From the NCBI GenBank assembly GCA_040767805.1, contig JAXGNU010000006.1:1-64000 (forward strand): a stretch of DNA of 64,000 nucleotides, in the 5' to 3' direction. The DNA comes from Thermovirgaceae bacterium (GTDB lineage Bacteria > Synergistota > Synergistia > Synergistales > Thermovirgaceae). This document shows, piece after piece, positions 9,186 to 41,487 of this stretch. The first letter of the stretch is position 1; each line of letters starts with the position of its first letter. Position numbers and translations under genes: made by a program. Under the pieces are notes generated by a model, which saw nothing but the letters and a program-made list of their open reading frames with translations, did no database searches and was not told the origin of the DNA.

Positions 9186-9214
9186 CTAGATTTTAGGTGA
9201 GGCAACTCGAGGGG

Positions 9215-9272: not shown

Positions 9273-9300
9273 GGAACGATCAGCCGGGAGGTTCTTCACG

Positions 9301-9546
9301 ATGACGATGCTCTGCGCGTTGGCCAATGGACAGACCGCGAGAATAACGGCCCTTCCCCCGGGCATGAGCGGGAGGAGGCTCGAGGCGCTGGGGCTGCGCC
9401 CCGGCAAGATGGTGACCAAGGTCTCCGGCATGCCCTTTTTCGGCCCCGTGACGATCGCCCTCGACGGAAGGCAGATAGCCATAGGTCGCGGCATCTGCTG
9501 CAAGGTCTCCGTGGAACCCCTGGCGGAGAGGAACGCGAAGGGGTAA
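9301..9546 (+). CDS. feoA: Ferrous iron transport protein A
   Basis: 'RRLEALGLRPG..PFFGPVTI..IAIGRG'; directly upstream of feoB. Confidence 0.88.
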   Translation: MTMLCALANGQTARITALPPGMSGRRLEALGLRPGKMVTKVSGMPFFGPVTIALDGRQIAIGRGICCKVSVEPLAERNAKG

Positions 9547-23561: not shown

Positions 23562-24578
23562 CTACAGTTTCGCCAGGGCTGCCTCAACCTTCCCGGCCAC
23601 GTCGCCGGGGAGCCATGACTTCCAGACACTCTTGTAATTGGTGAGGAACCAGGCGGCGGCCTCCTCGACGGTGGCCTCCTCCTGTTCCATGTAGGCCAGC
23701 ACCTCGTTGTTCTGGGCCAGCGTGGTCTCGTACTTTTCCAGGAACCCCACGACCTCGGGGTGCTTTTCGGCGAACCTGGTGTTGATGCCCTTGTGCACCC
23801 TGGCGGCGGGGAAGGCGCAGCCGTAGTCCTTGCCCTCACCCCACCGGTCTGGGTCGTAGGGCGGTTCCTCGAGCATCACCATGTCGAGCAGCCCCATGAT
23901 CCACTCGGGTTCCCAGTAGTAGGCGAGCACGGGCTGCCCCTTTTCGTAGGCCGATACGATGGCCGTCTGGAGGGCCATCTGGGAACCGGGGTCAAAGACG
24001 GTGTAACTGTCGGTGAGCCCGTAGGCCTCGAGTTTTTTCAGGTTTATGTCGTGCACCACCCAACCGGGGATAGCGTTGTAGAAGCGCCCCTTGCCGGGCA
24101 CCTCGGGGTCACGGAAGACCTCCCGGTACTTGGGTAAGTCGAATACGGACTTGAGATCGGGGGTCGTCGCCTTTATCCCCCGCTTTTCGTCCCCCTTGAT
24201 CATGTAGGCGGGGACGTACCACCCCTGGGGCGCGTCGGGGAAGATGGAGCCCAGGTCGAGGACCTGGCCGTTCTCCTCGACGGCGTCATGGTACCACTCA
24301 AGGGTGTTGTCGACCCACATCTCCATGGCTATATCCACATCACCCTGCTGGAGCCCCGTGAGGCCGGGCACCGACTCGGCGAAGAGGTACTCCGGTGAAA
24401 AACCGTAGCCGTGCTCCAGTATGAAGCCCGCGATACGGTCGTGGACCTGTACGCTGCTCCAGCTGAAATCGACCAGTACTACCCTTTCGGCTGCGATTGC
24501 GGCGGGAACTGAGGTCAGCCCCGTCACGACGGCAAGAACCAGTGCCAGGATCAATGCGCCTTTTCGTCCTGCTTTCAT
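23562..24578 (-). CDS. proX: Glycine betaine/proline ABC substrate-binding protein
   Basis: Signal peptide; 'GWYVP', 'YYWEP'; operon context. Confidence 0.88.
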   Translation of the reverse strand: MKAGRKGALILALVLAVVTGLTSVPAAIAAERVVLVDFSWSSVQVHDRIAGFILEHGYGFSPEYLFAESVPGLTGLQQGDVDIAMEMWVDNTLEWYHDAVEENGQVLDLGSIFPDAPQGWYVPAYMIKGDEKRGIKATTPDLKSVFDLPKYREVFRDPEVPGKGRFYNAIPGWVVHDINLKKLEAYGLTDSYTVFDPGSQMALQTAIVSAYEKGQPVLAYYWEPEWIMGLLDMVMLEEPPYDPDRWGEGKDYGCAFPAARVHKGINTRFAEKHPEVVGFLEKYETTLAQNNEVLAYMEQEEATVEEAAAWFLTNYKSVWKSWLPGDVAGKVEAALAKL

Positions 24579-24923
24579 GACAGAATCCCTCCTTCGAGTT
24601 GACGCACGCCGAACTGTCCTTCCTGGGACGCAGTCCCCGGCTGATACCGGCCCTTGGGCCGGTCAAAACGCACGCTCTCCGCGGGGGGTGAAGGGGGAAT
24701 TGAAAGGGGAAAACCAATTGAAAGGTTCACCGATGGTCCCCGGGAAGAGCCATGATATTACGCCGAAGAAAACCAATAGAATATTAAATTTTTGGTTCTG
24801 CGCCCCCAGGACCGGGCAATAATAATTGAACCGAAGGTAGCTGTCAAACTTTTGTATGCAATCCCCTCCGCTCCCGGCGGGAATCTTTTATGAAGTCTGA
24901 ACATTTAGTCTTATTGCGAACTC

Positions 24924-24963
24924 TTGCACAAAAGGTCTACCTGGTATATAAAGTATACTGGGT
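24924..24963 (+). promoter_or_regulatory. Promoter with overlapping inverted repeat (putative GntR operator)
   Basis: TTGCAC-17 nt-TATAAA; ACCTGGTATA..TATACTGGGT imperfect palindrome across the -10. Confidence 0.5.
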
Positions 24964-24985
24964 GGTCCAGCGGGGAGGTCGGCAA

Positions 24986-25684
24986 ATGATCGAAAAAAGA
25001 CTCCGCCATACCAGGATCTACGAGCAAGTCGTCGAGGAACTCAAGAACCTCATCGCTTCCGGTGAGCTCCTGCCGGGAGACCCCCTCCCCCCCGAGCGTC
25101 AGCTCATGGCGGAGATGGGCGTGAGCAGGAGTTCCCTCAGGGAGGCCTTCAGGGTCATGGAGCTGCTGGGGCTCATCGACAGCGTCCCCGGCAAGGGTCG
25201 CTTCGTCCGGAAACCCAGGGGCGAGGCAGCCGATTCGCGGAACATGCCCCTCGAGGACGAGGCCGTGCTCGAACTGATGGAGGCCCGCAGGGTCCTCGAC
25301 CCGGCCATCGCCGGGGCCGCGGCGATGCACGCGATGCCCGCGGACCTGATGAAACTGCGGAAAGTCCTCTCCAGGACCGAGAAGAACCTGGAGGATATCG
25401 AGAAGCGCTCCCAGGACGATTTCGACTTTCACCTGGCGCTCTCCGAGGCGACCCGGAATTTCGTCTTCATAAACATCGTGAAGATGACCTTCAACCTGAT
25501 CATGGCCACCCACGAGAGGATCTACTCGCTCCTCTCCGACAAGGAGGCTTTCCTCAACGAACACCGGGCCATCTACGAGGCGATCACCGACCACGACGTG
25601 GCCGCCGCCCAGGCGCTGGCCGCGGGTCACATCGAGAGGATCTACAAAACCTTGCAGGAAGCGCTGGCCCTTGAGGTCAAGTAA
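24986..25684 (+). CDS. FadR/GntR-family regulator
   Basis: 'LPPERQL..MGVSRSSLREA'; FCD domain 'DFDFH'. Confidence 0.92.
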   Translation: MIEKRLRHTRIYEQVVEELKNLIASGELLPGDPLPPERQLMAEMGVSRSSLREAFRVMELLGLIDSVPGKGRFVRKPRGEAADSRNMPLEDEAVLELMEARRVLDPAIAGAAAMHAMPADLMKLRKVLSRTEKNLEDIEKRSQDDFDFHLALSEATRNFVFINIVKMTFNLIMATHERIYSLLSDKEAFLNEHRAIYEAITDHDVAAAQALAAGHIERIYKTLQEALALEVK

Positions 25685-25731
25685 TTGATAGAGGCGCCAG
25701 AATTTCAAAACACCTATTGGAGGGATTTAGC

Positions 25732-26286
25732 ATGAGAGACAGGATCGTGAAGGTTTTCCCGGAGATCGACTGGGTCCAGGACAAGGGGCTCAGGGAAAAG
25801 GTGATCGCCACCATCGAGGACGCCCTCAAGACCGGCGGCTGGGAGCCCGAGGATATGGAGAAGATACCCTTCACACTCCTCATCCCCGACTGCCCCGCTT
25901 CCCTTAACGTCCACAACCGGGGCGTGACGAGGATGGCCAAGGCCATCTACGATGAGTACAACCCCCTCTACGAGAAGAACGGAGGTTTCAAACTCGACCA
26001 CGACACACTCATCGCCGGCGCCATCCTCCACGACGTGGGCAAACTGGTGGAGTACGAGAGGAAGGACGGCAAGGTCGTGAAGTCCCAGATGGGCAAGGAC
26101 CTCCGGCACCCCTTCTCCGGCGTCGGTCTGGCCATGCGGAACGGCATCCCCACCAGGATATGCCACTGCATCGCCGTCCACGCCAAGGAGGGCGACGGCG
26201 GGTACCGCTGCCCCGAGGCGGTGGTCATCAACAAGTGCGATTTCATCAACTTCGAGACCATCAAGTCGTTCCTGGGGCTTCTCTAA
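25732..26286 (+). CDS. HD-domain protein
   Basis: H..'ILHDVGK'..'RHPFSG'..D. Confidence 0.85.
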   Translation: MRDRIVKVFPEIDWVQDKGLREKVIATIEDALKTGGWEPEDMEKIPFTLLIPDCPASLNVHNRGVTRMAKAIYDEYNPLYEKNGGFKLDHDTLIAGAILHDVGKLVEYERKDGKVVKSQMGKDLRHPFSGVGLAMRNGIPTRICHCIAVHAKEGDGGYRCPEAVVINKCDFINFETIKSFLGLL

Positions 26287-26320
26287 CAAGGACGACCAAC
26301 AAACAGGAGGTGCATGACCC

Positions 26321-27601
26321 ATGGGCAAAACGATGATCGAGAAGATCATCCGGCGGGCGGCCGGCCGGGAGGTCAAGGTCGGCGAAAGGGTCTGGTGCGA
26401 TATCGACCTGTCGACGGCCCGCGACTTCGGCGGGGCCAACTGCGTACTGCAGTTCGAGGAAGTGACGGACAAAAAGGGCAAGGTCTGGAACCCCGACAAG
26501 GTGGCCTTCACCTTCGACCTCCAGGCCCCGTCCCACTCGGAAAAGGTTTCCAACAACCAGAAGATCATCCGTGAATTCGCCAAGAAGCAGGGCATCAAGA
26601 AGGTCTTCGACGTGGACTGGGGCATCGGCCAGCACGTCCTGCTCGAGAACGGCCTGGTGAAACCCGGCGACGTGATCCTGGGCACCGACAGCCACATGAA
26701 CCTCCTCGGCGGGGTGGGTGCCTTCGCCACCGGCGTGGGGAACACCGACATAGTGGCCTCCTGGTTCGAGGGGACCAACTGGTTCCGCGTCCCCGAGACT
26801 ATGAAGGTCACCGTCACGGGCAAGTTCAAAAAGGGCGTCTGCATGCGCGACCTGCTGACCCACATAGTGGGGGACCTCGGCGCCGCCGGGATGTTCTTCC
26901 TGGCCACCGAGTTCTACGGGGAGACCATCGAGAACTCGTCCCTGGCCGAGAGGATAACCCTCTGCTCCATGGTCACCGAGATGAGCGGCAAGGTGGGGCT
27001 CATCATGCCCAACGGCGAGGTCCTGGACTGGCTGGTCGGCAGGGCCGGCGACGAGGTCAAAGAAAGGGTCAAGACCCTCGCCGCCGACGCCGACGCCGTC
27101 TATGTCAAGGAACTGGAGTACAACGTGGACGACCTCGAGCCGATGACATCCTGCCCCGACGCGCCGGACAATGTTAAGAAGGTCCGCGAGGTCGCCGGCG
27201 AGCACGTGGACCAGGTCCACATCGGGTCCTGCTCCAACGGGCGTTTCGAGGACATCACGGCGGCTTTCGAGGTCCTCAAGGCGGGCGGCTTCAAGGTGGC
27301 CCCGGGCATGCGCGCCATTATCACTCCCGCCACCCGGGAAGTCATGCTGCAGTGCGCCAAGGCCGGTTACATCCAGAAGTTCCTCGAGGCGGGAGTCATC
27401 TTCACCAACCCGACCTGCGCGCTCTGCACCGCCGAGCACTACGGGGCGCTGCCGAGCGGCGACGTGGGCATGTCCACGACGAACCGGAACTTCATCGGCA
27501 AGGTCGGCAAGGGGAGCCACACCTACCTGGCGAGCCCCATGACGGCCATGGCTACCGCCGTGCGAGGCAAGATCACAGATCCCAGGGATATCCTCGGATA
27601 G
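26321..27601 (+). CDS. LeuC/HacA-type aconitase-family large subunit 1
   Basis: 'GTDSHM', 'GSCSNGR', 'PTCALC', 'TTNRNF', 'LASP'. Confidence 0.92.
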   Translation: MGKTMIEKIIRRAAGREVKVGERVWCDIDLSTARDFGGANCVLQFEEVTDKKGKVWNPDKVAFTFDLQAPSHSEKVSNNQKIIREFAKKQGIKKVFDVDWGIGQHVLLENGLVKPGDVILGTDSHMNLLGGVGAFATGVGNTDIVASWFEGTNWFRVPETMKVTVTGKFKKGVCMRDLLTHIVGDLGAAGMFFLATEFYGETIENSSLAERITLCSMVTEMSGKVGLIMPNGEVLDWLVGRAGDEVKERVKTLAADADAVYVKELEYNVDDLEPMTSCPDAPDNVKKVREVAGEHVDQVHIGSCSNGRFEDITAAFEVLKAGGFKVAPGMRAIITPATREVMLQCAKAGYIQKFLEAGVIFTNPTCALCTAEHYGALPSGDVGMSTTNRNFIGKVGKGSHTYLASPMTAMATAVRGKITDPRDILG

Positions 27602-27616
27602 GGAGGTTGGGGAAAA

Positions 27617-28144
27617 ATGGAAAAGAAGATCCTTCGCGGAAGGGCCTGGGTGTTTGGGGATGACGTCGACACGGACCTCATCTACCACAACAAGTACCTG
27701 GCCGAGACCGACCCGAAGAAGATGCCGCAGTATTCCTTCGAGTACTACCCCGGCAAGGAGCACTTCGCGAAAGAGGTGAAGGAGGGGGACTTCATCGTGG
27801 CCGGCACCAACTTCGGGTGCGGCTCCTCCCGGGAGCACGCCGTCTACTGCCTGAAGTACGCCGGCATACCCGTCGTCCTGGCCGAGTCCTTCTCGCGCAT
27901 CTATTACCGGAACGCCATAAACAACGGGTACCCGGTCCTCTTCGTGAACGGCCTGAGCCAGGCCATCAAGGACGGTAAGATCAAGGACGGCGACGAGCTC
28001 GAGGTCGACCTGGAGAAGGGCGAGATCAAGGACCTAACCAATGGCAACTCCTTCCACGGCGACGCCGTCGCGGACCTCGAGATGGACATCATGAAGGCCG
28101 GCGGCCTCATCGAGTACCTCAAGGAAAAGGCCGCGGGCAAGTAG
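27617..28144 (+). CDS. LeuD/HacB-type small subunit 1
   Basis: 'DDVDTDLI', 'NFGCGSSREHA', 'SFSRIYYRN'. Confidence 0.92.
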   Translation: MEKKILRGRAWVFGDDVDTDLIYHNKYLAETDPKKMPQYSFEYYPGKEHFAKEVKEGDFIVAGTNFGCGSSREHAVYCLKYAGIPVVLAESFSRIYYRNAINNGYPVLFVNGLSQAIKDGKIKDGDELEVDLEKGEIKDLTNGNSFHGDAVADLEMDIMKAGGLIEYLKEKAAGK

Positions 28145-28156
28145 GAGGGGGTCGGC

Positions 28157-29413
28157 ATGGGAAAGACATTCGCTGAAAAGGTACTCAGCAAGGCTGCCGG
28201 CGAGCCCGTTTCCGCCGGACAGGTCGTCATCGTCGAGCCTCACTTCTGCATGAGCCACGACAACGCCGCACCCATCTGGGGCACCTTCGAGAAGATAGGC
28301 GTCAAGAAGGTCTGGAAACCCGACCACCTGGTGTTCATCCTGGACCATGCCATCCCCGCGCCGACGGACAAGCACGCCGAGAACCACATGAAGATCCGCC
28401 AGGTGGTCAAGGAACAGGGGATCCGGTACTTTTACGACGTGACGAGCAAGGGCGGCGTCTGCCACCAGATCATGTGCGAGGAGGGCTTCGCCCTCCCCGG
28501 GCTGGTCGTCGTGGGCAGCGACAGCCACACCTGCACCTATGGCGCCTTTGGCACCTTCTCCACGGGAATTGGCCGCAGCGAGATGGCCGCCACCTGGGCG
28601 ACGGGGCAGATCTGGTTCCGCGTCCCTGAATCGATGAAGATCACCGTGACGGGCAAGTTCAAGAAGGGCGTCTCCGCCAAGGACCTGATCCTCAAGATCG
28701 CGGGCGACATAAAGGCCGACGGCGCCGACTACATGTCCATCGAGTTCCACGGCCCCGCCATCGAAGAGATGTCCCTCTCCGAGAGGATGACCCTCTGCAA
28801 CATGGGGATCGAGGTCGGCGCCAAGAACGCCGCCTGCCCCCCGGACCAGAAGGTCCTGGACTTCATCAAGCCCATAGCGAAGACGGACCAGTGGGAGGCC
28901 ATCTGGGCCGACGACGACGCGGTCTACGCCAAGGAACTGCACTACGACCTGGGAGACCTGGTCCCCGCCGTCGCCAAGCCCCACACGGTTGACAACTACG
29001 CCCCCATCGACGAGGTCAAGGGCACGCCCATCCACCAGGCCTTCCTCGGGAGCTGCACCAACGCCCGCATCGAGGACCTGCGTCTTGCCGCGGATATCCT
29101 GAAGGGCAAGGAAGTGGCCGTGAGGACCATCGTGCTGCCGGCCTCCTGGACGGTCTACCGCCAGGCGCTGGAAGAGGGGCTCATCGAGGTATTCCTCGAC
29201 GCCGGGTGCGTCATCATCAACCCGGGGTGCGGGCCCTGCATGGGCAACCACGAGGGGATACTGGCACCGGGTGAGACCTGCATCTCGACGGCCAACAGGA
29301 ACTTCAAGGGCCGCATGGGCAACAAGGACAGCTTCATCTACCTGGCCAGCCCCATGACGGTCGCCGCCTCCGCTTTAAAGGGCGAGATCTCCGATCCCAG
29401 GGAGGTGCTTTAG
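28157..29413 (+). CDS. LeuC/HacA-type large subunit 2
   Basis: 'HDN', 'DH', 'GSDSHTCT', 'GSCTN', 'CGPCMG', 'ANRNFKGRMG'. Confidence 0.93.
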   Translation: MGKTFAEKVLSKAAGEPVSAGQVVIVEPHFCMSHDNAAPIWGTFEKIGVKKVWKPDHLVFILDHAIPAPTDKHAENHMKIRQVVKEQGIRYFYDVTSKGGVCHQIMCEEGFALPGLVVVGSDSHTCTYGAFGTFSTGIGRSEMAATWATGQIWFRVPESMKITVTGKFKKGVSAKDLILKIAGDIKADGADYMSIEFHGPAIEEMSLSERMTLCNMGIEVGAKNAACPPDQKVLDFIKPIAKTDQWEAIWADDDAVYAKELHYDLGDLVPAVAKPHTVDNYAPIDEVKGTPIHQAFLGSCTNARIEDLRLAADILKGKEVAVRTIVLPASWTVYRQALEEGLIEVFLDAGCVIINPGCGPCMGNHEGILAPGETCISTANRNFKGRMGNKDSFIYLASPMTVAASALKGEISDPREVL

Positions 29414-29417
29414 CGCC

Positions 29418-29909
29418 ATGAAGATCACCGGAAAGGTATGGAAGTACGGCGACGACGTCAACACCGACGTCATATTCCCGGGGAAATACACCTACACCGT
29501 CTCGGACCGTAACGAGATGGGCAAGTACGCCCTCGAGGACCTCGACCCCGAGTTCACCAAGAACGCTCAACCGGGCGACATCATCGTCGGGGGCAAGAAC
29601 TGGGGCTGCGGCTCCTCCCGGGAACAGGCTGTCACCTGCATCAAGATGCGGGGGATCGGGGCCATCATCGCCAAGGGTTTCGCCAGGATTTACTACCGCA
29701 ACGCCCTGAACGAGGGCTTGCCCATCGTGGTGAGCCCCGAGGCCGTCGATGCCCTCGAGAAGGGCGACGAGGTCACCGTCGACTTCGACAAGAGCGAGAT
29801 CGTCACCCCCAAGGGGACCTTCAAGTTCCCGCCCTACCCCGATTTCGTCAAGGGCCTGATCGAGGACGGGGGGCTGATACCCCACGTGAAGAAGAGTTTG
29901 GGGCTGTAA
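29418..29909 (+). CDS. LeuD/HacB-type small subunit 2
   Basis: 'DDVNTDVIFPG', 'NWGCGSSREQA', 'FARIYYRN'. Confidence 0.92.
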   Translation: MKITGKVWKYGDDVNTDVIFPGKYTYTVSDRNEMGKYALEDLDPEFTKNAQPGDIIVGGKNWGCGSSREQAVTCIKMRGIGAIIAKGFARIYYRNALNEGLPIVVSPEAVDALEKGDEVTVDFDKSEIVTPKGTFKFPPYPDFVKGLIEDGGLIPHVKKSLGL

Positions 29910-29920
29910 GGGCGAAAAAA

Positions 29921-30047
29921 CCGTGAATCGGGAATCGTGAATCGAAAGGGCAAAACCCGTAAAACGTGAATCGGAAATCGTGAATCGAAAGAGCAAAGGC
30001 AAAAGCGAAAGGCGAAAAGCAAGGGCAAGGACTGTAAAACTTTAGGG
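29921..30047 (+). repeat. Two (TCGTGAA)n arrays plus purine-rich mosaic inside the operon
   Basis: ccgtgaa-tcgggaa-tcgtgaa-tcgaaag(ggc), then a second similar block. Confidence 0.82.
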
Positions 30048-30148
30048 CAAAGGCGGGTCGCAACACGAGAAGCGGGAGAGATATCCCAGCCGGCGGTGAG
30101 AGCACGTCTCCGACCCGCCTTTGATGAAACCAGGAGGGGGAAGCGCAC

Positions 30149-31390
30149 ATGGCAAGAAACGTGATGCAGGTGAAGGAAAAGAAGGACCGGTACCAGGTCT
30201 GCTATATCCCAGGCGACGATTCCGGCTTCGACGTGATGGAAGCCGCCATGATCGTCATGCAGGCCCTGGACCCCCCCATCGACTGGGTAAGAGCCGACAT
30301 GGGGTGGTGCATGTGGGAGAAGTCCTGCAAGGAGTACCCCGAGGGTGACAAGAGGAGGAACACCGTACCCCAGGAGACCATCGACAAGGTCAGGGACACC
30401 GACGCCACCTTCATGGCCGCCATCACCTCCAAGGCGGGCGTGAAGGGCTTCAAGTCGGCCATCCTCCAGATGAGGCAGATCTTCGACCTCTACATCAACT
30501 TCCGCCCGGCGAAACTGATGCCGGGGCTCGAGTGCCCCCTTAAGGGCGACCCGAAGATCGACATCAAGATCTTCCGGGAGAACACCGAGGATCTGTATTC
30601 CGCCGTGGAGTGGCGTCCCCTCCCCCGCGAGATGTTCGACCTTCACCCGGGGATGGAGCGCTTCAAGGACAAGGAGGAGGTGGCCGTCTCCTGGCGGGTC
30701 TACTCCAAGGAGGGCTGCGACAGGATCATCAGGGCCGCCTTCGAGTACGCCAAGGCCAACGGCCTGAAGAGCGTGGTCAACTGCAACAAGGCCAACGTCA
30801 TCAGGGCCACCGACGGGCTGATGAAGGAGCGCTTCCTCGAGATCGCCAAGGAGTACCCCGACATCGTCGCCCGCGAGGAGAACGCCGACGCCACGGCGAT
30901 GTGGCTCATCAAGAACCCCCAGGACTACCAGGTCATCGTCACCTCCAACGTCTTCGGCGACATCCTCTCCGACGAGGCCTCCCAGCTGGTCGGCGGCATG
31001 GGCTTCGCGCCCAGCGGCAACATCGGTGAGAACGCCGCCCTCTTCGAGCCCAGCCACGGTTCGGTGCCGAAGTACGCCCACCAGTACAAGATCAACCCCT
31101 GCGGCCTCCTGATCACCGGGGTCATGATGCTCGAGTACCTCGGCCTCAAGGACCACGCGGCCAGGCTCGAGAAGGCCATCGGCGACGTGCTCGTTGAGAG
31201 CAAGTACCTCACCTACGACATCTGGCGCGACGACAAGGCCGACAAGGACTGGGAGAAGAAGGCCGTCTCGACCCTTGACATGGCCAAGGCCATCGCTTCG
31301 AAGATCGACCCCGACTTCGACAAGAAGGCCGACGCGATCTGCGCCAAGGCCCGCGAGATGTGCGCCTGGGAGCACCTAGTCCAGAAGTAG
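30149..31390 (+). CDS. Isocitrate/homoisocitrate/isopropylmalate dehydrogenase family
   Basis: 'IPGDDSG', 'FRENTEDLY', 'KANV', 'NVFGDILSD', 'LFEPSHGSVP'. Confidence 0.92.
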   Translation: MARNVMQVKEKKDRYQVCYIPGDDSGFDVMEAAMIVMQALDPPIDWVRADMGWCMWEKSCKEYPEGDKRRNTVPQETIDKVRDTDATFMAAITSKAGVKGFKSAILQMRQIFDLYINFRPAKLMPGLECPLKGDPKIDIKIFRENTEDLYSAVEWRPLPREMFDLHPGMERFKDKEEVAVSWRVYSKEGCDRIIRAAFEYAKANGLKSVVNCNKANVIRATDGLMKERFLEIAKEYPDIVAREENADATAMWLIKNPQDYQVIVTSNVFGDILSDEASQLVGGMGFAPSGNIGENAALFEPSHGSVPKYAHQYKINPCGLLITGVMMLEYLGLKDHAARLEKAIGDVLVESKYLTYDIWRDDKADKDWEKKAVSTLDMAKAIASKIDPDFDKKADAICAKAREMCAWEHLVQK

Positions 31391-31553
31391 GGGCTGCATA
31401 CCGGGAACAGCAATTACTTGGGAAAAGGACCTTGAGCCCGGGGCTCACCTTCGGGTGGGCCCCGGCGCTTCGGGGCGACCGATGGGCATTGACCCAAATG
31501 ATACCGACCGGGTTAGGGCTCCCTACCCCACCCCGGTCCCTGGAGGTAAGAAT

Positions 31554-31826
31554 ATGAAAACTGCCCAGGCAGGGACCCTCGAGTCGATGGACTGCATCGT
31601 CACCGTTACCGAAACGGAAAAGGGGCGAGGCATATCCATCGTCATGGAGGGGGCGAGCGTCGTCCGCTTCGGCGAGGCGATGTTGAAGGCGACAAAGGAC
31701 ACCCTGAAAGGGCTGGGTGTCCGCGATATGGCCGTCTCCATCCAGGATAACGGGGCCGGCGACCTGGTGCTGAAGGCCAGGGTCGAGGCGGCCGTGAGAA
31801 GATTTACGGGGGTGAGGACCCCATGA
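31554..31826 (+). CDS. citD: Citrate lyase acyl carrier protein (gamma)
   Basis: 'AGTLES' prosthetic-group Ser motif; 'DNGA'. Confidence 0.9.
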   Translation: MKTAQAGTLESMDCIVTVTETEKGRGISIVMEGASVVRFGEAMLKATKDTLKGLGVRDMAVSIQDNGAGDLVLKARVEAAVRRFTGVRTP

Positions 31827-32704
31827 GGCTGAGAAGGACCAAGCTGTATCTACCCGGGAACAACCCCAACATGCTCCTCCGGGGGCACCTCTTCAATCCC
31901 GACGGCGTCATCCTGGACCTCGAGGACGCCGTGGCGATGAGCGAAAAGGACGCGGCCAGGATCCTCGTCAGGGATGTCCTGAAAAGGGGCGACTTCGGCG
32001 ATTGCGAGGTCACCGTGAGGATCAACGGCATGGACACGGAGTACTGGAAGGCCGACATAGAGACCGTCGTGCCCTGCGGCATCGACGGCATCCGCATACC
32101 CAAGGTGGAGGACCCCAAGGACATCGCCCTGATGGACGAGGCCCTCTCCCATATCGAGAGCAATGCCAGGATACCGGTGGGCAGGACCCTGATCTTCTGC
32201 CTGCTGGAGACGGCCCTGGGCGTTTGGAGGGCCTTCGACATTGCCAGGGCCTCGAAAAGAGTGGCCGCCATCTGCCCCGGGGGGGAGGACCTCCGGGCGG
32301 ACCTGAAGACGACCCGTTCCGAGAACAGCGAGGAGCTCATCGGCCCTCGGAGGATGATAGCCCTGGCCGCCCACGCCGCCGGCGTCGACGCCCTGGACAC
32401 GGTCTACGCCGACATCACCGACGACGCGGGGCTGAGGCGGGAAACGGAGTGGGTCAAGCAGCTGGGATTCCAGGGCAAGAGCGTCATACACCCGAACCAG
32501 ATCCCGGTAGTCCACGAGGTCTTCACGCCGACGGCCAAGGAGATCGAACAGGCCAAAAAGATCGTCGAGGCCGCCGCCGAAGCAGCCGCCAGGGGGCTCG
32601 GGGCGGTCCAGGTCGACGGCAGGATGGTCGACAAGCCCGTGGTCAAGAGGGCGGAGTACACCCTCCAAAGGGCTGGTCTGAAAGCCGGAGGTGAGAAAGC
32701 ATGA
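31823..32704 (+). CDS. citE: Citryl-ACP lyase beta subunit
   Basis: 'DLEDAV', 'VRING', 'PKVE', 'GKSVIHPNQI', 'DGRMVDKPV'. Confidence 0.92.
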   Translation: MRLRRTKLYLPGNNPNMLLRGHLFNPDGVILDLEDAVAMSEKDAARILVRDVLKRGDFGDCEVTVRINGMDTEYWKADIETVVPCGIDGIRIPKVEDPKDIALMDEALSHIESNARIPVGRTLIFCLLETALGVWRAFDIARASKRVAAICPGGEDLRADLKTTRSENSEELIGPRRMIALAAHAAGVDALDTVYADITDDAGLRRETEWVKQLGFQGKSVIHPNQIPVVHEVFTPTAKEIEQAKKIVEAAAEAAARGLGAVQVDGRMVDKPVVKRAEYTLQRAGLKAGGEKA

Positions 32705-34251
32705 CTATAAACGCCGCGGGACGCAATGTACCCGATACGATACCCGGTTACGGGGAGGTCCGGCACTTCAAGGGCCACGACAGGAGGCCCCCCGAAGGGT
32801 GCCGATTCGGCAAAAAGAACAGGGCCGCCTTCAACACCAGGAGGGACAAGACCCTGCCCGACCTCAAGGCGGCCATAAGCGCTTCGGGGCTCAAGAGCGG
32901 GATGACCGTGTCCTTCCATCACCACCTCCGCGACGGCGACTACGTGGTCAACGCCGTTATCGACGCCTGCGCCGAGATGGGCATCCGCGACCTGGTGATC
33001 TTCCCCACGGCCCTCTTCAAGGTCCATAAGCACCTGACAAAACATATCCAGAACGGGGTCATCCGCCAGATAATGGGATCCGTCAACGGGCCCATCGGGC
33101 AGCTCGCCTCCGAGGGCGGGTTCAGCGTCCCCGTCGTCCTGAGGAGCCACGGCGGGCGCCCCAGGGCCGTGACCAGCGGCGACGTGGTCATCGACGTGGC
33201 CTTCATCGCCGCCCCCACGGCGGACAATTACGGCAACCTGACGGGGGCCGTCGGCAGGTCGGCCTGCGGGTCCCTGGGGTACGCCCACAGCGACGCCCAT
33301 TACGCCCAGTGCGTGGTGGCCGTCACGGACAACCTGGTCAACTACCCGGCGCCCTGCATCCAGATCCCCCAGTTCTTCGTCGACTTCGTGGTCCCCGTGG
33401 ACAAGATCGGGGACCCCGCCGGCATCGTCAGCGGTACCACCAGGGTTACCAGGGACCCCATGAGGCTGCTGATAGCCCGTAACGCCGCGAAACTGATCGA
33501 GGCGACCCCCTATTTCAAGGACGGCATATCCTTCCAGACCGGGGCGGGGGGCATCTCCCTCGCCGTGGCGGCCTACGTCAGGGAAGCCATGCGGGAGCGG
33601 GGCATAAAGGGCAGCTTTGGGCTCGGAGGCATCACCGAGTTCTTCGTGGACATGATGAAGGAGGGGCTCTTCGAGAGGCTGCTTGACGTCCAGTCCTTCG
33701 ACCTCGCAGCGGTGAAGTCCATCGCCGAGAACACCAACCACGTGGAGATCTCGGCCGACTGGTACGCTAACCCCTGGAACGCGGGGTGCGCCGTCAACAT
33801 GCTCGACACGGTGGTTCTTGGCGCTACGGAAGTGGACAGGGATTTCAACGTGAACGTCAACACCGAGGCCGACGGGGCGATGCTCCACGGAATCGGGGGG
33901 CACCAGGACACCGCCGCCGGGGCGCAGCTGACCATCATCACCACCCCGCTGCTCCGCGGGCGGATACCCTGCGCCGTCGACTCGGTCTACACCGTCAGCA
34001 CGCCCGGCGAGGTGGTGGACGCCGTGGTCACGGAGTTCGGCGTCGCCCTCAACCCCAGGAGGCAGGACCTCATCGACGCCGCCAGGGAAGCAGGCGACGT
34101 CCCACTGGTCACCATGGACGAACTGGTGGAAAAGGCCCAGGAATTGACAGGGCCGATGACCCCCGTCGAGACGGAGGACCGGATCATCGGCGTGGTGGAA
34201 TACCGCGACGGCACCGTCATCGACGTGGTGAAGCAGCTGAAGAAAAAGTAG
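32701..34251 (+). CDS. citF: Citrate lyase alpha subunit (ACP transferase)
   Basis: 'SFHHHLRDGD', 'RSHGGR', 'FQTGAGG', 'GGHQDTA', 'EYRDGTVID'. Confidence 0.94.
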   Translation: MTINAAGRNVPDTIPGYGEVRHFKGHDRRPPEGCRFGKKNRAAFNTRRDKTLPDLKAAISASGLKSGMTVSFHHHLRDGDYVVNAVIDACAEMGIRDLVIFPTALFKVHKHLTKHIQNGVIRQIMGSVNGPIGQLASEGGFSVPVVLRSHGGRPRAVTSGDVVIDVAFIAAPTADNYGNLTGAVGRSACGSLGYAHSDAHYAQCVVAVTDNLVNYPAPCIQIPQFFVDFVVPVDKIGDPAGIVSGTTRVTRDPMRLLIARNAAKLIEATPYFKDGISFQTGAGGISLAVAAYVREAMRERGIKGSFGLGGITEFFVDMMKEGLFERLLDVQSFDLAAVKSIAENTNHVEISADWYANPWNAGCAVNMLDTVVLGATEVDRDFNVNVNTEADGAMLHGIGGHQDTAAGAQLTIITTPLLRGRIPCAVDSVYTVSTPGEVVDAVVTEFGVALNPRRQDLIDAAREAGDVPLVTMDELVEKAQELTGPMTPVETEDRIIGVVEYRDGTVIDVVKQLKKK

Positions 34252-34253
34252 CA

Positions 34254-34453
34254 TCGTGGATCGTGGATCATGAATCGTAATTCGTGAATCGTGAACCGAA
34301 AAAAATACCGATCCTTAAAAGAACGGGACCAAATTACTTCCCTAAGCCGCCAAATGGCGGCTTAGGGTTTCTTTTTGACCAATAAACACTGAAACAAAAA
34401 CCACTTTCTGTTCTCGCTCCGGGCTTTTTCCGATCCACGGTTTACGATTCACG
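34254..34453. repeat. Inverted pair of heptamer arrays (34254-34296 forward; 34431-34453 reverse) enclosing a terminator
   Basis: tcgtgga-tcgtgga-tcatgaa-tcgtaat-tcgtgaa-tcgtgaa ... tccacgg-tttacga-ttcacg. Confidence 0.78.
34340..34376 (+). terminator. Intrinsic terminator of the cit operon
   Basis: CCCTAAGCCGCC/GGCGGCTTAGGG stem followed by TTTCTTTTT. Confidence 0.85.
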
Positions 34454-34461
34454 CTTTTGTT

Positions 34462-35790
34462 TTAAATCCTCCCCACCCCGTAGTAGGAGAACCCCTGGGC
34501 CCTCACGCGCTCCGGCGAGAGTTGGTTCCGGCCGTCGAAGACCGCCGAGTCGGGCTTCATGGCGCCCTTGACCCTGTCCCAATCGGGCCTGCGGAACTGG
34601 GGCCACTCCGTGACCAGGACGAGGGCGTCGGCCCCCTCGAGGGCCTCGTAGGAGTCGGCGCAGAAGGTCACCGAGCCGTCGTCGGGGAGCAGGGCCCTGG
34701 CCTTTTCCATGGCCACCGGGTCGTAGGCCCTCAACAGGGCGCCCCGCGAGAGAAGGGCCTCGGCCAGGGCGAGGGAGGGCGCCTCCCTCATGTCATCGGT
34801 ATGGGGTTTGAAACTGAGCCCCCAGATGGCGAAGGTCCTCCCGCCCAGGTCCTCCCCGAAGTGGCCCGTTATTTTTTCAAGGAAGAACCGCCCCTGGGCC
34901 CTGTTGGCCTCCTCGACGGCCCTTAGGATGGCCAGGTCGACCCCCCTGGCCGAGGCGCTCCGGATGAGGGCCCGGACGTCCTTGGGGAAACAGGAGCCCC
35001 CGTAGCCAAGGCCGGCGTAGAGGAAGGAGGAGCCGATCCTGCTGTCGGTGCCCATGCCGATGCGGACCTCTCCCACGTCGGCGCCGACCTTTTCGCAGAG
35101 GCGGGAGAGCTCGTTCATGAAGCTGATCCTCGTGGCGAGCATCGCGTTGGAGGCGTACTTGGTCATCTCCGCCGAGGGAATGGACATGGTGTAGAAACGG
35201 TCCTCCCTCATGACGAAGGGGGCGAAGAGCTCCCTGAGCTGCCTGTCGGTATCCTCCCGTTCGGTCCCTATTATGATCCTGTCGGGGCGGAGGCAGTCCT
35301 CCACGGCGGCGCCCTCCTTGAGGAACTCGGGGCAGAAGGCCACGTCGAAGTCGAGGTCCCACCGCCCCCGGTCGGCCAGGTTTTCCCCGATGATCCTCTT
35401 GATCTCGGCGGTGGTCCCCACGGGTATGGTGGACTTGGCGACGACGATCTTGGGGGTCTCCATGAGCCCGCCAATGCGGGAGGCAACCTCGTAGACGTGA
35501 GCCAGGTCGGCGGAGCCGTCCTCCCCGGGTGGCGTACCCACGGCGATGAAGACGAAGAGGCTGGGCCGGAGGGCCTCCCCCAGGTCCGTCGTGAAACGGA
35601 GGCGCCCCTCGGAGAGGTTCCTTTTGACCATGTCCTCGAGGCCGGGCTCGTAGATGGAGACCTTTCCCTCCTTCAGGCCCTCGATCTTGGAGTGGTCGAC
35701 GTCGACGCACCAGACGTCGTTGCCGTTCTCGGCGAGGCAGGCCCCCGTGACGAGGCCGACGTACCCGGTTCCGATGATGCAGACTTTCAT
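34462..35790 (-). CDS. ugd: UDP-glucose 6-dehydrogenase
   Basis: GTGYVG, 'PEFLKEG', 'GYGGSCFPKD', 'FKPHTDDMRE'. Confidence 0.95.
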   Translation of the reverse strand: MKVCIIGTGYVGLVTGACLAENGNDVWCVDVDHSKIEGLKEGKVSIYEPGLEDMVKRNLSEGRLRFTTDLGEALRPSLFVFIAVGTPPGEDGSADLAHVYEVASRIGGLMETPKIVVAKSTIPVGTTAEIKRIIGENLADRGRWDLDFDVAFCPEFLKEGAAVEDCLRPDRIIIGTEREDTDRQLRELFAPFVMREDRFYTMSIPSAEMTKYASNAMLATRISFMNELSRLCEKVGADVGEVRIGMGTDSRIGSSFLYAGLGYGGSCFPKDVRALIRSASARGVDLAILRAVEEANRAQGRFFLEKITGHFGEDLGGRTFAIWGLSFKPHTDDMREAPSLALAEALLSRGALLRAYDPVAMEKARALLPDDGSVTFCADSYEALEGADALVLVTEWPQFRRPDWDRVKGAMKPDSAVFDGRNQLSPERVRAQGFSYYGVGRI

Positions 35791-38273: not shown

Positions 38274-38275
38274 CT

Positions 38276-41251: not shown

Positions 41252-41470
41252 ATCATGAATCGTAAATCGGGAATCGTAAGGTCAAAAGCGTAAACGGCAA
41301 TAGCAAACTTCAAAACCAGGGCAAAGGTGAAAGGTATGAGTTCTTCTTTTTCGTCTTTTCTAACACCTCACGCTCTTAAGGTTTTGCCTTGCCCTTTCGA
41401 CTCATGACTCACGATTCACGATTCACGGTTCACGGTTCACGATTTACGATTTACGATTCACGATTCACGA
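41246..41470. repeat. Fold-back cassette: forward heptamers (41246-41279), purine-rich then pyrimidine-rich core, about 10 reverse heptamers (41398-41470)
   Basis: (TCGTGAA)n ... (TTCACGA)n visible directly. Confidence 0.9.
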
Positions 41471-41487
41471 GAACAGGGAGGTTTTTT

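Follow-up and report, generated by a model that had tools for sequence, protein, structure and literature searches.

Gene content and boundaries of the operon

Positions 24986-34251 of the window, the whole stretch of 64,000 nucleotides that was analysed, hold ten genes in the order GntR-HD-LeuC1-LeuD1-LeuC2-LeuD2-Iso_dh dehydrogenase-CitD-CitE-CitF, all on the forward strand. The earlier note had described ten same-direction genes of these families, a terminator after citF, and a block with neither a synthase gene nor a leu context; Pfam and NCBIfam profile matches, a stem with a T-run behind citF, and the location of the source genome's leuA-leuC-leuD-leuB operon on another contig (C15) agree with that description throughout. 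The features are as follows.

24986-25684, + strand: GntR+FCD regulator, first gene (Pfam GntR 69.5 bits, FCD 74.2 bits)
25717-26286, + strand: HD-domain protein, metal-dependent (Pfam HD 35.6 bits)
26321-27601, + strand: LeuC1, divergent aconitase-family large subunit (Pfam Aconitase 273 bits)
27617-28144, + strand: LeuD1, small subunit of pair 1 (Pfam Aconitase_C; substrate loop DTDLIYHNKYLAETD)
28157-29413, + strand: LeuC2, aconitase-family large subunit (Pfam Aconitase 351 bits)
29418-29909, + strand: LeuD2, small subunit of pair 2 (Pfam Aconitase_C; loop GKYTYT)
29918-30028, no strand: short tandem repeats such as AAATCGTGAATCGG, with 7-, 13- and 14-base units (Tandem Repeats Finder), inside the 239-bp spacer
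30149-31390, + strand: Iso_dh-family dehydrogenase (Pfam Iso_dh 274.5 bits)
31554-31826, + strand: CitD-type acyl carrier protein (Pfam ACP/MdcD 79 bits; longest ORF from 31455)
31823-32704, + strand: CitE-type lyase beta subunit, acyl-ACP lyase (Pfam HpcH_HpaI 204.7 bits)
32701-34251, + strand: CitF-type alpha subunit, acetyl-ACP:hydroxyacid ACP-transferase (Pfam CitF 558 bits)
34340-34367, + strand: intrinsic-terminator-like hairpin, a 12-pair stem with 9 G-C pairs, then TTTCTTTTTG

Neighbouring genes are separated by 4-34 bp or overlap by 4 bp, except at two longer spacers: LeuD2 and the dehydrogenase lie 239 bp apart, where the majority of other genera have only some 25-120 bp, and roughly 163 bp separate the dehydrogenase from CitD; an Rfam search of 24000-35000 returned zero matches. 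RNA-library contigs of 7548, 6803 and 5144 nt, covering 25002-32549, 24971-31746 and 24970-30113, start at 24970-25002 in three runs and span every junction from GntR to CitE, with single contigs crossing both long spacers. The regulator, which heads the cluster in 12/12 relatives' loci, stays under all NCBIfam equivalog cut-offs; its longest ORF opens at 24890, and the start at 24986, taken over from the earlier note, is an internal ATG. The HD protein probably starts at 25732 (its Atlas sequence begins at residue 6), matches generic HD clusters only in the Atlas, and found no relative with E < 0.3 in a PDB search; its gene lies immediately 5' of LeuC1 in 12/12 relatives and likewise in several Bacillota loci (L071, L077, L086, L088, L090).

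The ten-gene order is colinear in all 12 relatives' loci, drawn from at least five families, and occurs in 28/80 loci of named public genomes, so the arrangement is not due to chance. In a further 14/80 loci (Acidaminobacter hydrogenoformans, Lachnospiraceae, Oscillospiraceae, Pyramidobacter) LeuC1D1, 73-80% identical and with an unchanged loop, lies beside CitDEF without LeuC2D2 or the dehydrogenase, and the LeuC2D2-dehydrogenase module is found in the full operon. The operon is thus composed of two modules, LeuC1D1 with CitDEF (hydratase and lyase) and LeuC2D2 with the dehydrogenase; therefore LeuC1D1 would feed the lyase, and LeuC2D2 with the dehydrogenase would form the other half.

Enzyme families and their relatives

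LeuC1 carries three Cys for a 4Fe-4S cluster, is 73-98% identical across Synergistota and Bacillota, and meets subfamily models only, its best NCBIfam equivalog being LEU2 (366 bits vs a cut-off of 611); LeuC2 likewise reaches no equivalog (HacA_Meth 479 bits vs 550, LEU2 465 vs 611). In the LeuC tree LeuC1 and LeuC2 make up two separate 100/100 clades apart from the leu-operon LeuC, with LeuC1 on a stem of 0.97. A role in leucine biosynthesis was rejected on account of these clades and of the separate leuA-C-D-B genes on C15. The two small subunits have different loops, as had been noticed earlier: NKYLAET in LeuD1, aligned with the PDB small-subunit loops of 3vba (RYLVYT), 2pkp (PYLRTT) and 1v7l (RYNLTK), is identical in 69/75 orthologs, with KYLAE kept in 70/75, and GKYTYTV in LeuD2 has its KYTYT motif in 46/47. 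Against the homoaconitate hydratase small-subunit model NF010629 (cut-off 229 bits), LeuD2 scores 167.6 and LeuD1 106.7. We propose LeuC1 as a candidate hydratase from enoate to tertiary alcohol (homocitrate/citrate-type half-reaction), and LeuC2 as a candidate dehydratase from iso-acid to enoate (homoaconitase-type half-reaction).

The dehydrogenase retains every catalytic Arg, Tyr, Lys and Asp in the alignment, and has as its best matches the Thermus homoisocitrate dehydrogenase in the PDB (209 bits) and AksF2_Meth in NCBIfam (303 bits vs a cut-off of 540, no equivalog being reached). Its substrate helix, FKSAILQMR, is of the homoisocitrate dehydrogenase type and its cofactor motif, HGSVPKYAHQY, of the NADP type. 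The K-S-A-I-L of this helix resembles the x-S-[AG]-I-[IVL] or G-S-I-L in 14/14 listed Methanobacterium proteins that NCBI or JGI annotates as homoisocitrate dehydrogenase; among 120 relatives the helix reads SAIIT in 79 and SAILT in 7, and a representative at 527 bits vs 540 in the AksF2 model (P0140) has S-A-I-L-T-L-R. By contrast, the helix is S-x-N-V in 23 representatives of the isocitrate dehydrogenase (ICDH) type, G-x-L-L in IPMDHs, and D/E-V-I-V in the representative passing the LEU3_arch subfamily model. An assignment as isocitrate dehydrogenase was rejected, because Ile replaces Asn115 (E. coli ICDH numbering) and the KSAIL helix is like that of the methanogen homoisocitrate dehydrogenases, although the enzyme shares Ser113 and an NADP-type K-Y motif with ICDHs. 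We propose the enzyme as a candidate reductive carboxylase of a 2-oxo acid.

CitD (TIGR01608, 67.2 bits, cut-off 63.5) and CitF (TIGR01584, 625 bits, cut-off 501) exceed their thresholds, in the case of CitF that of an equivalog model, and CitE (TIGR01588, 320 bits) is under its threshold of 443; 'citrate lyase' is used here as a family name for a putative activity. CitD contains an AGTLES motif, whose Ser is presumably the carrier of the prosthetic group, and the genes for the maturation proteins CitC, CitX and CitG lie at other places in this genome. In the CitF tree a 100/99 split places the operon's CitF with 10/10 CitF from glmS-glmL-glmE-mal-mesAB clusters, as sister to that methylaspartate-cluster clade and not nested within it, and places E. 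coli CitF and all aconitase-ICDH- or Tct-linked CitF on the other side. The lyases of these clusters are putative citramalate lyases, according to PMC4682846. The operon's CitE, however, falls outside the methylaspartate-cluster clade in its own tree and has Arg91, which is present in 34/34 CitE outside that clade and replaced by L, M, V or I in 14/14 inside it; at the corresponding position, those citramalyl-/malyl-CoA lyases of solved structure that were compared carry L, M or V. This Arg lies five residues ahead of the Mg-binding Glu, and its role is putative. On the substrate, the lyase phylogeny is not decisive.

A proposed route and its alternatives

We propose that the operon probably cuts a 2-oxo acid by two carbons in amino-acid-fermenting Synergistota, which would be an undescribed fermentation route; in the open literature we found no paper on this ten-gene operon. 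First, the NADP-type dehydrogenase would reductively carboxylate a 2-oxo dicarboxylate to a 3-substituted malate, which LeuC2D2 would dehydrate to a cis-enoate and LeuC1D1 would rehydrate to a tertiary 2-substituted malate. The ACP-dependent CitDEF would then swap this acid onto acetyl-ACP and cleave it, which would yield acetate and a 2-oxo acid that has lost two carbons. The gene families and their order, conservation, modularity and presence in RNA libraries are observed; which way the route runs, how the two LeuCD pairs share the work and which substrate is used are inferred. We consider this general mechanism, 2-oxoacid chain elongation run backwards by one catabolic operon, likely. The linear route from 2-oxo acid through iso-acid, enoate and tertiary hydroxy acid had been suggested earlier, and is supported by the conserved order, modular occurrence and enzyme families; the suggested split of the isomerisation between two LeuCD pairs gains support from the same modules.

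The likeliest series would run from 2-oxoadipate, CO2 and NADPH through homoisocitrate, cis-homoaconitate and homocitrate to acetate and 2-oxoglutarate, the latter being converted further to propionate or acetate; that the mechanism takes this form and serves lysine fermentation is a tentative proposal. Among three candidates of the earlier note, the reversed aminoadipate route fits best because the dehydrogenase helix is of the methanogen homoisocitrate dehydrogenase type and not that of ICDH; reductive carboxylation of 2-oxoglutarate is weakened, since the dehydrogenase lacks Asn115 and relatives possess canonical aconitase-ICDH-CitDEF clusters alongside the operon; and branched use of aconitate may apply to the hydratase-lyase module in Bacillota. 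According to PMC3035242, acetate and propionate are the products of lysine fermentation by Thermanaerovibrio acidaminovorans. Searches of eight Synergistales genomes for enzymes of classical lysine fermentation gave 0/8 for the Kce family and, in a search without a positive control, 0/8 for lysine 5,6-aminomutase. An L-lysine 6-transaminase-family gene is above the curated cut-off in 32/41 relatives vs 0/14 control genomes and is present in 22/23 operon-bearing genomes; from its product, 2-oxoadipate would be reached through a further putative dehydrogenase and a putative aminotransferase.

Several observations count against the homocitrate series. The transaminase-family gene is also found in 12/18 operon-free relatives, is unlinked to the operon, and has an in-frame TGA in the source genome's copy. 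The named methanogen homoisocitrate dehydrogenases have a D-I (NAD-type) motif, whereas the operon's enzyme has an NADP-ICDH-type cofactor motif besides its sub-equivalog score. Methanogen homoaconitase (YLRT, PDB 2pkp), like canonical aconitase (LPLRS), has an Arg in its loop, and neither LeuD loop has one. Finally, Bacillota LeuC1D1 with the identical loop neighbour 3-methylitaconate-isomerase-like, IRG1/IDS-epimerase-like and lactonase-like proteins and tricarboxylate or CitMHS transporters, and homoaconitate would be no obvious substrate there.

By the same mechanism, glutamate could pass through 2-oxoglutarate, isocitrate, cis-aconitate and citrate to acetate and oxaloacetate, which, if true, would allow glutamate to be fermented to two acetates in redox balance; we regard this citrate series as rather unlikely. 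In the source genome, a Thermovirgaceae-like Synergistota MAG (80.6% complete), and in its congener (91%), no canonical aconitase or ICDH was seen, the leu-operon LeuC being the sole other aconitase-family enzyme in the former, where no citrate synthase was seen either; the operon might therefore need to handle citrate too in this genus. The glutamate mutase E gene is absent in 5/5 Synergistales genomes, and PMC3035242 reports citrate lyase and glutamate dehydrogenase activities in T. acidaminovorans on glutamate, 2-oxoglutarate or succinate, with beta-methylaspartase and hydroxyglutarate dehydrogenase undetected. However, ICDH activity was undetected as well, and the lyase activity is not attributable to the operon because this species has three CitF copies. 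Moreover, in T. acidaminovorans and two other relatives (G030, G010, G034) the operon would be redundant, because an equivalog-level aconitase and NADP-ICDH adjoin another CitDEF. The CitF score, CitE Arg91, Ser113 and the K-Y motif fit citrate, as do the TctBAC tricarboxylate transporter and PrpF-family isomerase upstream of the A. hydrogenoformans module (trans-aconitate to cis-aconitate to citrate), but the Ile at Asn115, the Arg-free loops and the position of CitF in its tree do not.

The same CitF position and Arg-free loops would suit a reversed citramalate pathway, from 2-oxobutyrate, CO2 and NADPH through 3-methylmalate, citraconate and (R)-citramalate to acetate and pyruvate, with two threonine-dehydratase-like genes and methylmalonyl-CoA mutase of the source genome as possible 2-oxobutyrate sources; in Bacillota and Pyramidobacter, LeuC1D1 and the lyase would instead act on citraconate that the 3-methylitaconate-isomerase-like protein forms from itaconate. 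The isomerase adjoining LeuC1D1 is nearer 3-methylitaconate isomerase 3g7k (329 bits) than PrpF (265 bits), and the PrpD-family neighbour matches IDS epimerase/cis-aconitate decarboxylase (116-120 bits) over 2-methylcitrate dehydratase (33 bits). Other Clostridia have clusters of isomerase, LeuCD-type hydratase and lyase with a PEP-mutase/ICL-family lyase, an arrangement that we take to resemble the last steps of nicotinate fermentation. Nevertheless, the K-S-A-I-L helix matches neither IPMDH nor LEU3_arch, CitE with its Arg91 and the sister, not nested, position of CitF disagree, and tricarboxylate transporters flank the Acidaminobacter module; we consider this series improbable. More improbable still is that no single route exists, CitDEF fermenting citrate while the LeuCD pairs and dehydrogenase only serve biosynthesis by making 2-oxoglutarate or some other 2-oxo acid, or the operon running synthetically from acetate and a 2-oxo acid. 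The two long spacers could hold internal promoters, 20/80 loci have LeuC1D1-LeuC2D2-dehydrogenase in an incomplete ten-gene set, some 19-kb loci (L074, L078, L084, L096) lack CitDEF downstream, and the source genome encodes a 416-aa HMGL-like synthase on contig C5. Yet the order is fixed in the loci counted above, RNA-library contigs cross both spacers, LeuC1D1 keeps the lyase even where the dehydrogenase module is missing, and the operon has no transporter and is headed by a GntR/FCD regulator like catabolic operons. At millimolar concentrations, general thermodynamics would disfavour net synthesis by a lyase that uses no ATP, which counts against the synthetic direction.

Returning to the homocitrate series, the route proposed for the operon would be that of the alpha-aminoadipate and coenzyme-B elongation cycle, run in reverse.

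Organisation of the ten-gene operon and its genomic setting

An ORF listing and family scans placed all ten genes in one orientation on the + strand, in agreement with the earlier note, and they comprise a regulator, an HD-domain protein, two aconitase-family hydratase pairs (LeuC1D1 and LeuC2D2, each a large and a small subunit), a dehydrogenase and a three-subunit lyase.

Genes of the operon (window coordinates, strand, product)
24986-25684, +, GntR/FCD regulator (longest ORF from 24890)
25717-26286, +, HD-domain protein
26321-27601, +, LeuC1
27617-28144, +, LeuD1
28157-29413, +, LeuC2
29418-29909, +, LeuD2
30149-31390, +, Iso_dh-family dehydrogenase
31554-31826, +, CitD (longest ORF from 31455)
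31823-32704, +, CitE
32701-34251, +, CitF

The genes are mostly separated by gaps of 4-34 bp or joined by 4-bp overlaps, with the exceptions of 239 bp 5' of the dehydrogenase gene and about 163 bp 5' of citD, and the terminator that had been noticed after citF was recovered as a hairpin of 12 pairs followed by a T-run at 34340-34367. The promoter scan gave no convincing + strand site 5' of GntR, the Rfam scan of 24000-35000 gave no match, and neither a PDB sequence search (best E 0.3) nor the Atlas assigned a specific function to the HD-domain protein. The spacer between LeuD2 and the dehydrogenase holds short tandem repeats at 29918-30028, with the units GAATCGG, CGTGAAT and AGCAAAGGCAAA; within the genus it is long as well (L036, L042), and it measures only about 25-120 bp in most other genera.

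Operon sequences were found in RNA libraries from sludge, wherein metatranscriptome contigs of three runs, at no less than 99% identity, cover 25002-32549, 24971-31746 and 24970-30113 and span both long spacers of the operon; DNA carry-over being possible, they are no proof of a single transcript. These contigs start at 24970-25002, within 16 bp on either side of the GntR ATG (24986), and the shared start near 24970 gives a weak hint, contig ends being weak evidence, of a 5' end with a very short or absent leader.

The operon contains neither a transporter nor an oxaloacetate decarboxylase gene, and its flanks are unrelated, with a divergent OpuAC-type ABC transporter upstream and a UDP-glucose dehydrogenase (34462-35790, - strand) and an Arn-like sugar-modification cluster downstream. 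The latter (36624-42510, +) encodes an ArnT-type glycosyltransferase, a DegT-type aminotransferase, a GT2 transferase, a formyltransferase and an epimerase/dehydratase, and together with the UDP-glucose dehydrogenase it probably serves an aminoarabinose-type envelope modification in a diderm member of the Synergistota.

The host genome is an assembly of 1.65 Mb in 29 contigs with 80.6% completeness, against which absences are to be judged, and the window makes up the first 64 kb of its contig C6. The closest named proteins belong to Thermovirgaceae/Thermovirga MAGs (89% identity), and the closest public record is the MAG 'Synergistetes bacterium ADurb.Bin155' (98% identity). Within this 80.6% complete assembly, no member of the citrate synthase family was found, and the search for AcnA/B and Icd that the earlier note had called for returned no further aconitase or Iso_dh member. 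Contig C5 carries a 416-aa HMGL-like synthase (C5:99117-100367; L017 7118-8368) that scores under all equivalog cut-offs (LEU1_arch 313 bits vs 485; NifV 252 vs 463); its possible functions are Re-citrate, homocitrate and citramalate synthase, and knowing what it acts on would help to decide if citrate is made by this genome at all.

Conservation of the operon and a separable hydratase-lyase module

LeuC1 orthologs of at least 78% identity occur in 23 of the 41 Synergistales genomes, and in these 23 genomes LeuC2 always lies about 1.8 kb from the LeuC1 ortholog where the contig permits. The synteny that had been put forward as a check was confirmed, as all ten genes follow in the same order in 12/12 relatives' loci from at least five families, with protein identities of 62-99% (CitD lower, 49-93%). 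Among 80 loci in named public genomes, collected with LeuC1 as query, the ten genes are colinear in 28; another 20, many on cut contigs, hold LeuC1D1 with LeuC2D2 and/or the dehydrogenase in fewer than ten genes, including four (L074, L078, L084, L096) in which no CitDEF follows within the locus; 14 have LeuC1D1 beside CitE/F only, and 18 were too short to classify.

LeuC1D1 occurs with CitDEF, and with neither LeuC2D2 nor the dehydrogenase, in Acidaminobacter hydrogenoformans, Lachnospiraceae, Oscillospiraceae, Clostridium sp. MAGs and Pyramidobacter, wherein LeuC1D1 retains 73-80% identity; the LeuD1 loop DTDLIYHNKYLAETD is kept in 69 of 75 orthologs and its KYLAE core in 70. In A. hydrogenoformans (L090) the neighbours of this module are TctB-TctA-TctC, a PrpF-family protein and CitC, and in three further loci (L105, L085 and, from Pyramidobacter, L081) PrpF-family and PrpD-family proteins adjoin it, accompanied in L105 and L085 by an Amidohydro_2 lactonase-like protein and a CitMHS/MatC-type transporter. 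The PrpF-family protein scores best on 3-methylitaconate isomerase (PDB 3g7k, 329 bits, vs 265 for PrpF), and the PrpD-family protein reaches 116-120 bits on IDS epimerase/cis-aconitate decarboxylase (IRG1) and 33 bits on 2-methylcitrate dehydratase. Therefore, LeuC1D1 and CitDEF, standing alone with isomerase-like neighbours, can be read as a hydratase-plus-lyase module that is fed an enoate, and in the window this enoate would have to come from the dehydrogenase and LeuC2D2. In anaerobes of gut and mud, the isomerase-LeuC1D1-CitDEF module may provide a path, independent of CoA, for acids of the aconitate or itaconate type.

Comparable clusters, in which an isomerase and a LeuCD pair are joined by a lyase of the PEP-mutase/ICL type, occur in other Clostridia and Synergistales. 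More catabolic LeuCD-type pairs were seen in Clostridia (L190, L191, L194) and Synergistales (L203, L204, L205), with the loops KYLSL, QYMEL, QYMEQ, KYTKT and KYLNL; most adjoin PEP-mutase/ICL-family lyases, L191 having no lyase nearby, and the Clostridia clusters add PrpF- or PrpD-family proteins and PrpR-type activators, with an AcnX protein in L194. The catabolic 'LeuCD' hydratase family thus seems much wider than annotation indicates.

Enzyme families and the choice of substrate

Neither hydratase pair reached the cut-off of a known family. On the 3-isopropylmalate isomerase models, LeuC1 and LeuC2 scored 366 and 465 bits vs 611 and LeuD1 and LeuD2 161 and 181 vs 246; on the methanogen homoaconitase models, LeuC1 and LeuC2 scored 351 and 479 bits vs 550 (HacA_Meth) and the small subunits 149-166 vs 230 (HacB/HacB2); and on aconitate hydratase (NF005558) the two LeuC proteins scored 242 and 327 bits vs 612. 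On the model for the small subunit of bacterial homoaconitase, LeuD2 scores above LeuD1 (167.6 vs 106.7 bits, cut-off 229). LeuC1 and LeuC2 fall into two separate 100/100 clades of the LeuC tree, both outside the leu-operon clade, and the LeuC1 clade has a very long stem (0.97), yet is very conserved internally. This phylogeny was set aside as a guide to function, its deep branches lacking resolution and giving no functional placement. The substrate loops of the two small subunits do differ, as had been read from the sequence.

Substrate loops of the small subunit or swivel domain
LeuD1 of the operon: KYLAE
LeuD2 of the operon: KYTYT
leu-operon LeuD of the same genome: RYLVT
M. jannaschii isopropylmalate/citramalate isomerase: RYLVYT
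Methanogen homoaconitase (2pkp): PYLRTT
Pyrococcus enzyme: RYNLTK
Canonical aconitases of relatives (swivel-domain loop): AKVLPLRS

The dehydrogenase aligns with E. coli Icd at every catalytic residue, and its cofactor motif HGSVPKYAHQY is of the NADP-ICDH type (K-Y). Relative to NADP-isocitrate dehydrogenase, it keeps Ser113 and has Ile in place of Asn115, and its best ICDH model gives 269 bits vs 509. It carries the K-S-A-I-(I/L) helix of AksF/AksF2, but scores 303 bits vs 540 on these models and has PKYA instead of the NAD-type PDIA.

Residues at E. coli Icd positions 113, 115 and 116
Icd: S, N, V
LeuB and DmlA: G, L, L
Thermus homoisocitrate dehydrogenase: G, I, R
Dehydrogenase of the operon: S, I, L

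Of 43 orthologs, 40 keep the helix FKSAILQ(M/L)RQ, and the family is isolated, as in a search of 1.84 billion representatives the next proteins beyond its own clusters are at most 47% identical. The S-x-N-V helix class comprises 23 representatives, including those with ICDH as best NCBIfam model; G-x-L-L is found in IPMDH-type representatives, and S-(P/A)-(I/V/L)-(I/L/V) is common to those scoring best on AksF/AksF2 models. One of the representatives, P0140 (AksF2, 527 bits vs 540), has the helix SAILTLR. Its 120 relatives come from Methanobacterium, and to many of them NCBI or JGI gives the name homoisocitrate dehydrogenase; SAIIT stands in 79, SAILT in 7 and KSAIITLR in the named enzymes. 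The substrate helix is therefore of the methanogen homoisocitrate type, being common to the dehydrogenase and the named methanogen enzymes. The characterised M. jannaschii AksF acts on iso(homo)1-3-citrates and is not known to act on isocitrate. The helix Ile-Leu had also been considered as proof of an alkylmalate substrate, which was dropped because the named methanogen homoisocitrate dehydrogenases share that helix.

The lyase passes the citrate lyase equivalog cut-offs in CitF (625 vs 501) and CitD (67.2 vs 63.5), but not in CitE (320 vs 443), and the maturation genes citC, citX and citG are all in the genome, unlinked to the operon (CitG on contig C2; CitC and CitX on C11 near a glutamate dehydrogenase gene). 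In a tree of 48 CitF sequences with defined gene contexts, a 100/99 split groups nine operon-type CitF with 10/10 CitF from methylaspartate clusters and four others; on the opposite side stand E. coli, all CitF linked to aconitase-ICDH or Tct genes, and the Bacillota LeuC1D1-linked CitF on a long stem (0.77). In the tree of CitE, 14 rows make up the clade of the methylaspartate clusters, which a 100/98 split parts from all others, and the operon's CitE falls outside it with no resolved place among the other rows. The CitF and CitE placements differ, and thus the operon lyase would be an intermediate lineage, which on sequence grounds does not appear typical of either citrate or citramalate lyases. 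CitE position 91 is Arg in 34/34 sequences outside the methylaspartate-cluster clade and L, M, V or I in 14/14 within it; L, M or V also stands there in solved malyl-/citramalyl-CoA lyases and the Deinococcus CitE-like protein shown. A role of Arg91 in binding the carboxylate was set aside in spite of the perfect correlation in the sample; the residue lies five positions before the Mg-binding Glu and is therefore used as a marker only.

Synergistota are abundant amino-acid fermenters of digesters, guts and oral sites, and to our knowledge their lysine and glutamate routes to acetate are not accounted for by known pathways. According to PMC3035242, Thermanaerovibrio acidaminovorans forms acetate and propionate from lysine; the activities recorded there as present are those of citrate lyase, glutamate dehydrogenase and 2-oxoglutarate dehydrogenase, with beta-methylaspartase, hydroxyglutarate dehydrogenase and isocitrate dehydrogenase as not detected. 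Among the markers of classical lysine fermentation, the Kce/BKACE family was found in 0/8 Synergistales genomes and lysine 5,6-aminomutase alpha in 0/8, the latter in a search without positive control; the saccharopine-dehydrogenase N-domain family was likewise found in 0/8. An L-lysine 6-transaminase-family gene above the curated cut-off occurs in 32/41 relatives and 0/14 control genomes, namely in 22/23 operon-bearing and also 12/18 operon-free genomes, these genomes being kin and the counts not independent. It is unlinked to the operon, in the order MreB-CxxCxxCC-LAT, and its neighbours are housekeeping genes, so that no linked pathway is indicated. The copy in the present genome (C8:51108-52418; L210 about 9109-10419) has one in-frame TGA and scores 458 bits vs the 520.8 cut-off, with intact orthologs in relatives at 549-609 bits; the TGA may be an assembly error, a pseudogene mark or a recoded codon.

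Based on the anatomy and synteny of the operon, we consider it probable that its general mechanism is a reversed 2-oxoacid elongation ending in an ACP-dependent lyase. As to the substrate, the homocitrate series ranks ahead of the citrate, the citramalate and the non-linear or biosynthetic readings, in this order, and is put forward tentatively. In the homocitrate series, the dehydrogenase would be an NADPH-dependent carboxylating homoisocitrate dehydrogenase, LeuC2D2 a homoaconitase-type hydratase and partner of LeuC1D1, LeuC1D1 a dedicated homocitrate hydro-lyase, for a half-reaction whose enzyme the aminoadipate pathway has long lacked, and CitDEF an ACP-dependent homocitrate lyase. The candidate route, lysine to 2-aminoadipate to 2-oxoadipate, then to acetate and 2-oxoglutarate and finally to propionate, would account for the acetate and propionate reported. 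That Synergistota, and some Bacillota by gene transfer, employ these steps as a new fermentation principle turning lysine-derived 2-oxoadipate into acetate and 2-oxoglutarate is a doubtful but possible extension.

The citrate series, starting from 2-oxoglutarate, is unlikely. The citrate lyase activity reported for T. acidaminovorans extracts (PMC3035242) could come from any of three CitF copies in that genome. T. acidaminovorans (G030) and two other relatives (G010, G034) possess an aconitase at equivalog level (940-951 bits vs 612) beside an equivalog-level NADP-ICDH (635-653 bits vs 567) and another CitDEF (L125 in G010, L123/L131 in G030, L133 and L134 in G034), a cluster also seen in a Clostridia genome (L168) in the order Tct-CitXG-CitC-CitDEF-Acn-Icd; Tct genes flank it in L125 and L168, upstream in G010, and it was not found in the present genome or in G002. 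CitDEF coupled to aconitase and ICDH could serve to ferment citrate while supplying 2-oxoglutarate, or to ferment glutamate reductively. Genomes with both the canonical cluster and the ten-gene operon therefore have two pathways that follow one logic, which argues for a different operon substrate. Both LeuD loops lack the Arg of the methanogen homoaconitase YLRT and of the aconitase LPLRS, which, if the methanogen/aconitase rule is general, counts against both tricarboxylate readings, the homocitrate series included. The citramalate series, starting from 2-oxobutyrate, is more improbable still. According to PMC4682846, the CitDEF of methylaspartate clusters are taken to be citramalate lyases, and the citrate lyase of E. 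coli showed no citramalate lyase activity; the operon CitF sides with the former. A. hydrogenoformans has such a cluster too (L128, G041 C20); it is complete, glmS-glmL-glmE-mal-mesA-mesB-citD-citE-citF, as is the one in L129. In A. hydrogenoformans, CitF genes are found in three different contexts (L128, L177, L090), and there are four paralogs of the PrpF family. The methylaspartate pathway as the role of the lyase in Synergistota was rejected, as glutamate mutase E was found in 0/5 Synergistales genomes searched and the hydratases belong to another family. A non-linear or biosynthetic role of the operon is the least probable reading. The leucine-model scores of the operon's proteins are below those of LeuC, LeuD and LeuB from a separate leuA-leuC-leuD-leuB operon on contig C15, which are yet under the cut-offs, with LeuA passing one; the observation that the ten genes lie outside a leu context thereby holds.

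The homocitrate series, if true, would explain how Thermanaerovibrio forms acetate and propionate from lysine by a path other than the classical 3,5-diaminohexanoate pathway. Should the enzymes tolerate several chain lengths, the operon could shorten 2-oxoglutarate too, which would give a glutamate-to-acetate route, so far unexplained, where the methylaspartate and hydroxyglutarate pathways are both missing. The operon is a concrete candidate for the conversion of lysine or glutamate to acetate in Synergistota; if confirmed, it would represent a new carbon-carbon cleavage route that consumes CO2 and balances redox, bring a new substrate class to citrate-lyase-type complexes, supply a dedicated enzyme for the first half of a (homo)citrate-type isomerisation, and correct the names of many proteins annotated as isopropylmalate dehydratase or citrate lyase.

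Comparison with known systems

Open-access full texts and bioRxiv yielded no paper on the operon or on an isomerase-LeuCD-CitDEF route, and four known systems resemble it in part. The citCDEFXG system of Klebsiella pneumoniae and E. coli likewise has a three-subunit ACP-dependent lyase, and the operon's CitD and CitF pass its equivalog cut-offs. However, the operon's CitE is under the cut-off, its CitF branches away from that of E. coli, its maturation genes are unlinked, and it joins the lyase to two hydratases and a dehydrogenase, without a transporter or oxaloacetate decarboxylase.

Aminoadipate lysine synthesis and the coenzyme-B elongation of methanogens (AksA, HacAB or LysTU, AksF) link a tertiary hydroxy acid to a 2-oxo acid by the same three steps, and share the K-S-A-I-L helix, the Thermus homoisocitrate dehydrogenase being the best solved relative. 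Homocitrate isomerisation is divided between two enzymes in fungi and Thermus. The operon differs in its NADP-type motif, in LeuD loops without the YLRT Arg and in reaching no equivalog cut-off of these enzymes; it has a lyase where elongation has a CoA-dependent synthase, and for this reason a degradative direction is proposed.

The methylaspartate pathway (glmSLE-mal-mesAB-citDEF, with an (S)-citramalate lyase) also passes from a hydratase to a CitDEF-type lyase yielding acetate and a 2-oxo acid, and its CitF (10/10) lies on the operon's side of the 100/99 split, whereas its hydratase is a class I fumarase and the operon's are of the aconitase family, the operon's CitE stands outside its clade, and glutamate mutase was lacking in 5/5 Synergistales genomes. 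The nicotinate fermentation of Eubacterium barkeri ends with 3-methylitaconate isomerase (Mii), dimethylmalate dehydratase (DmdAB) and dimethylmalate lyase, an arrangement of isomerase, LeuCD-type hydratase and C-C lyase that recurs in the Bacillota/Pyramidobacter LeuC1D1 module and in the PEP-mutase-lyase clusters. Although resembling these end steps, the operon has a CitDEF-type lyase instead of the ICL/PEP-mutase type, and the enoate in the window is proposed to arise from the dehydrogenase and a second LeuCD pair rather than from an isomerase.
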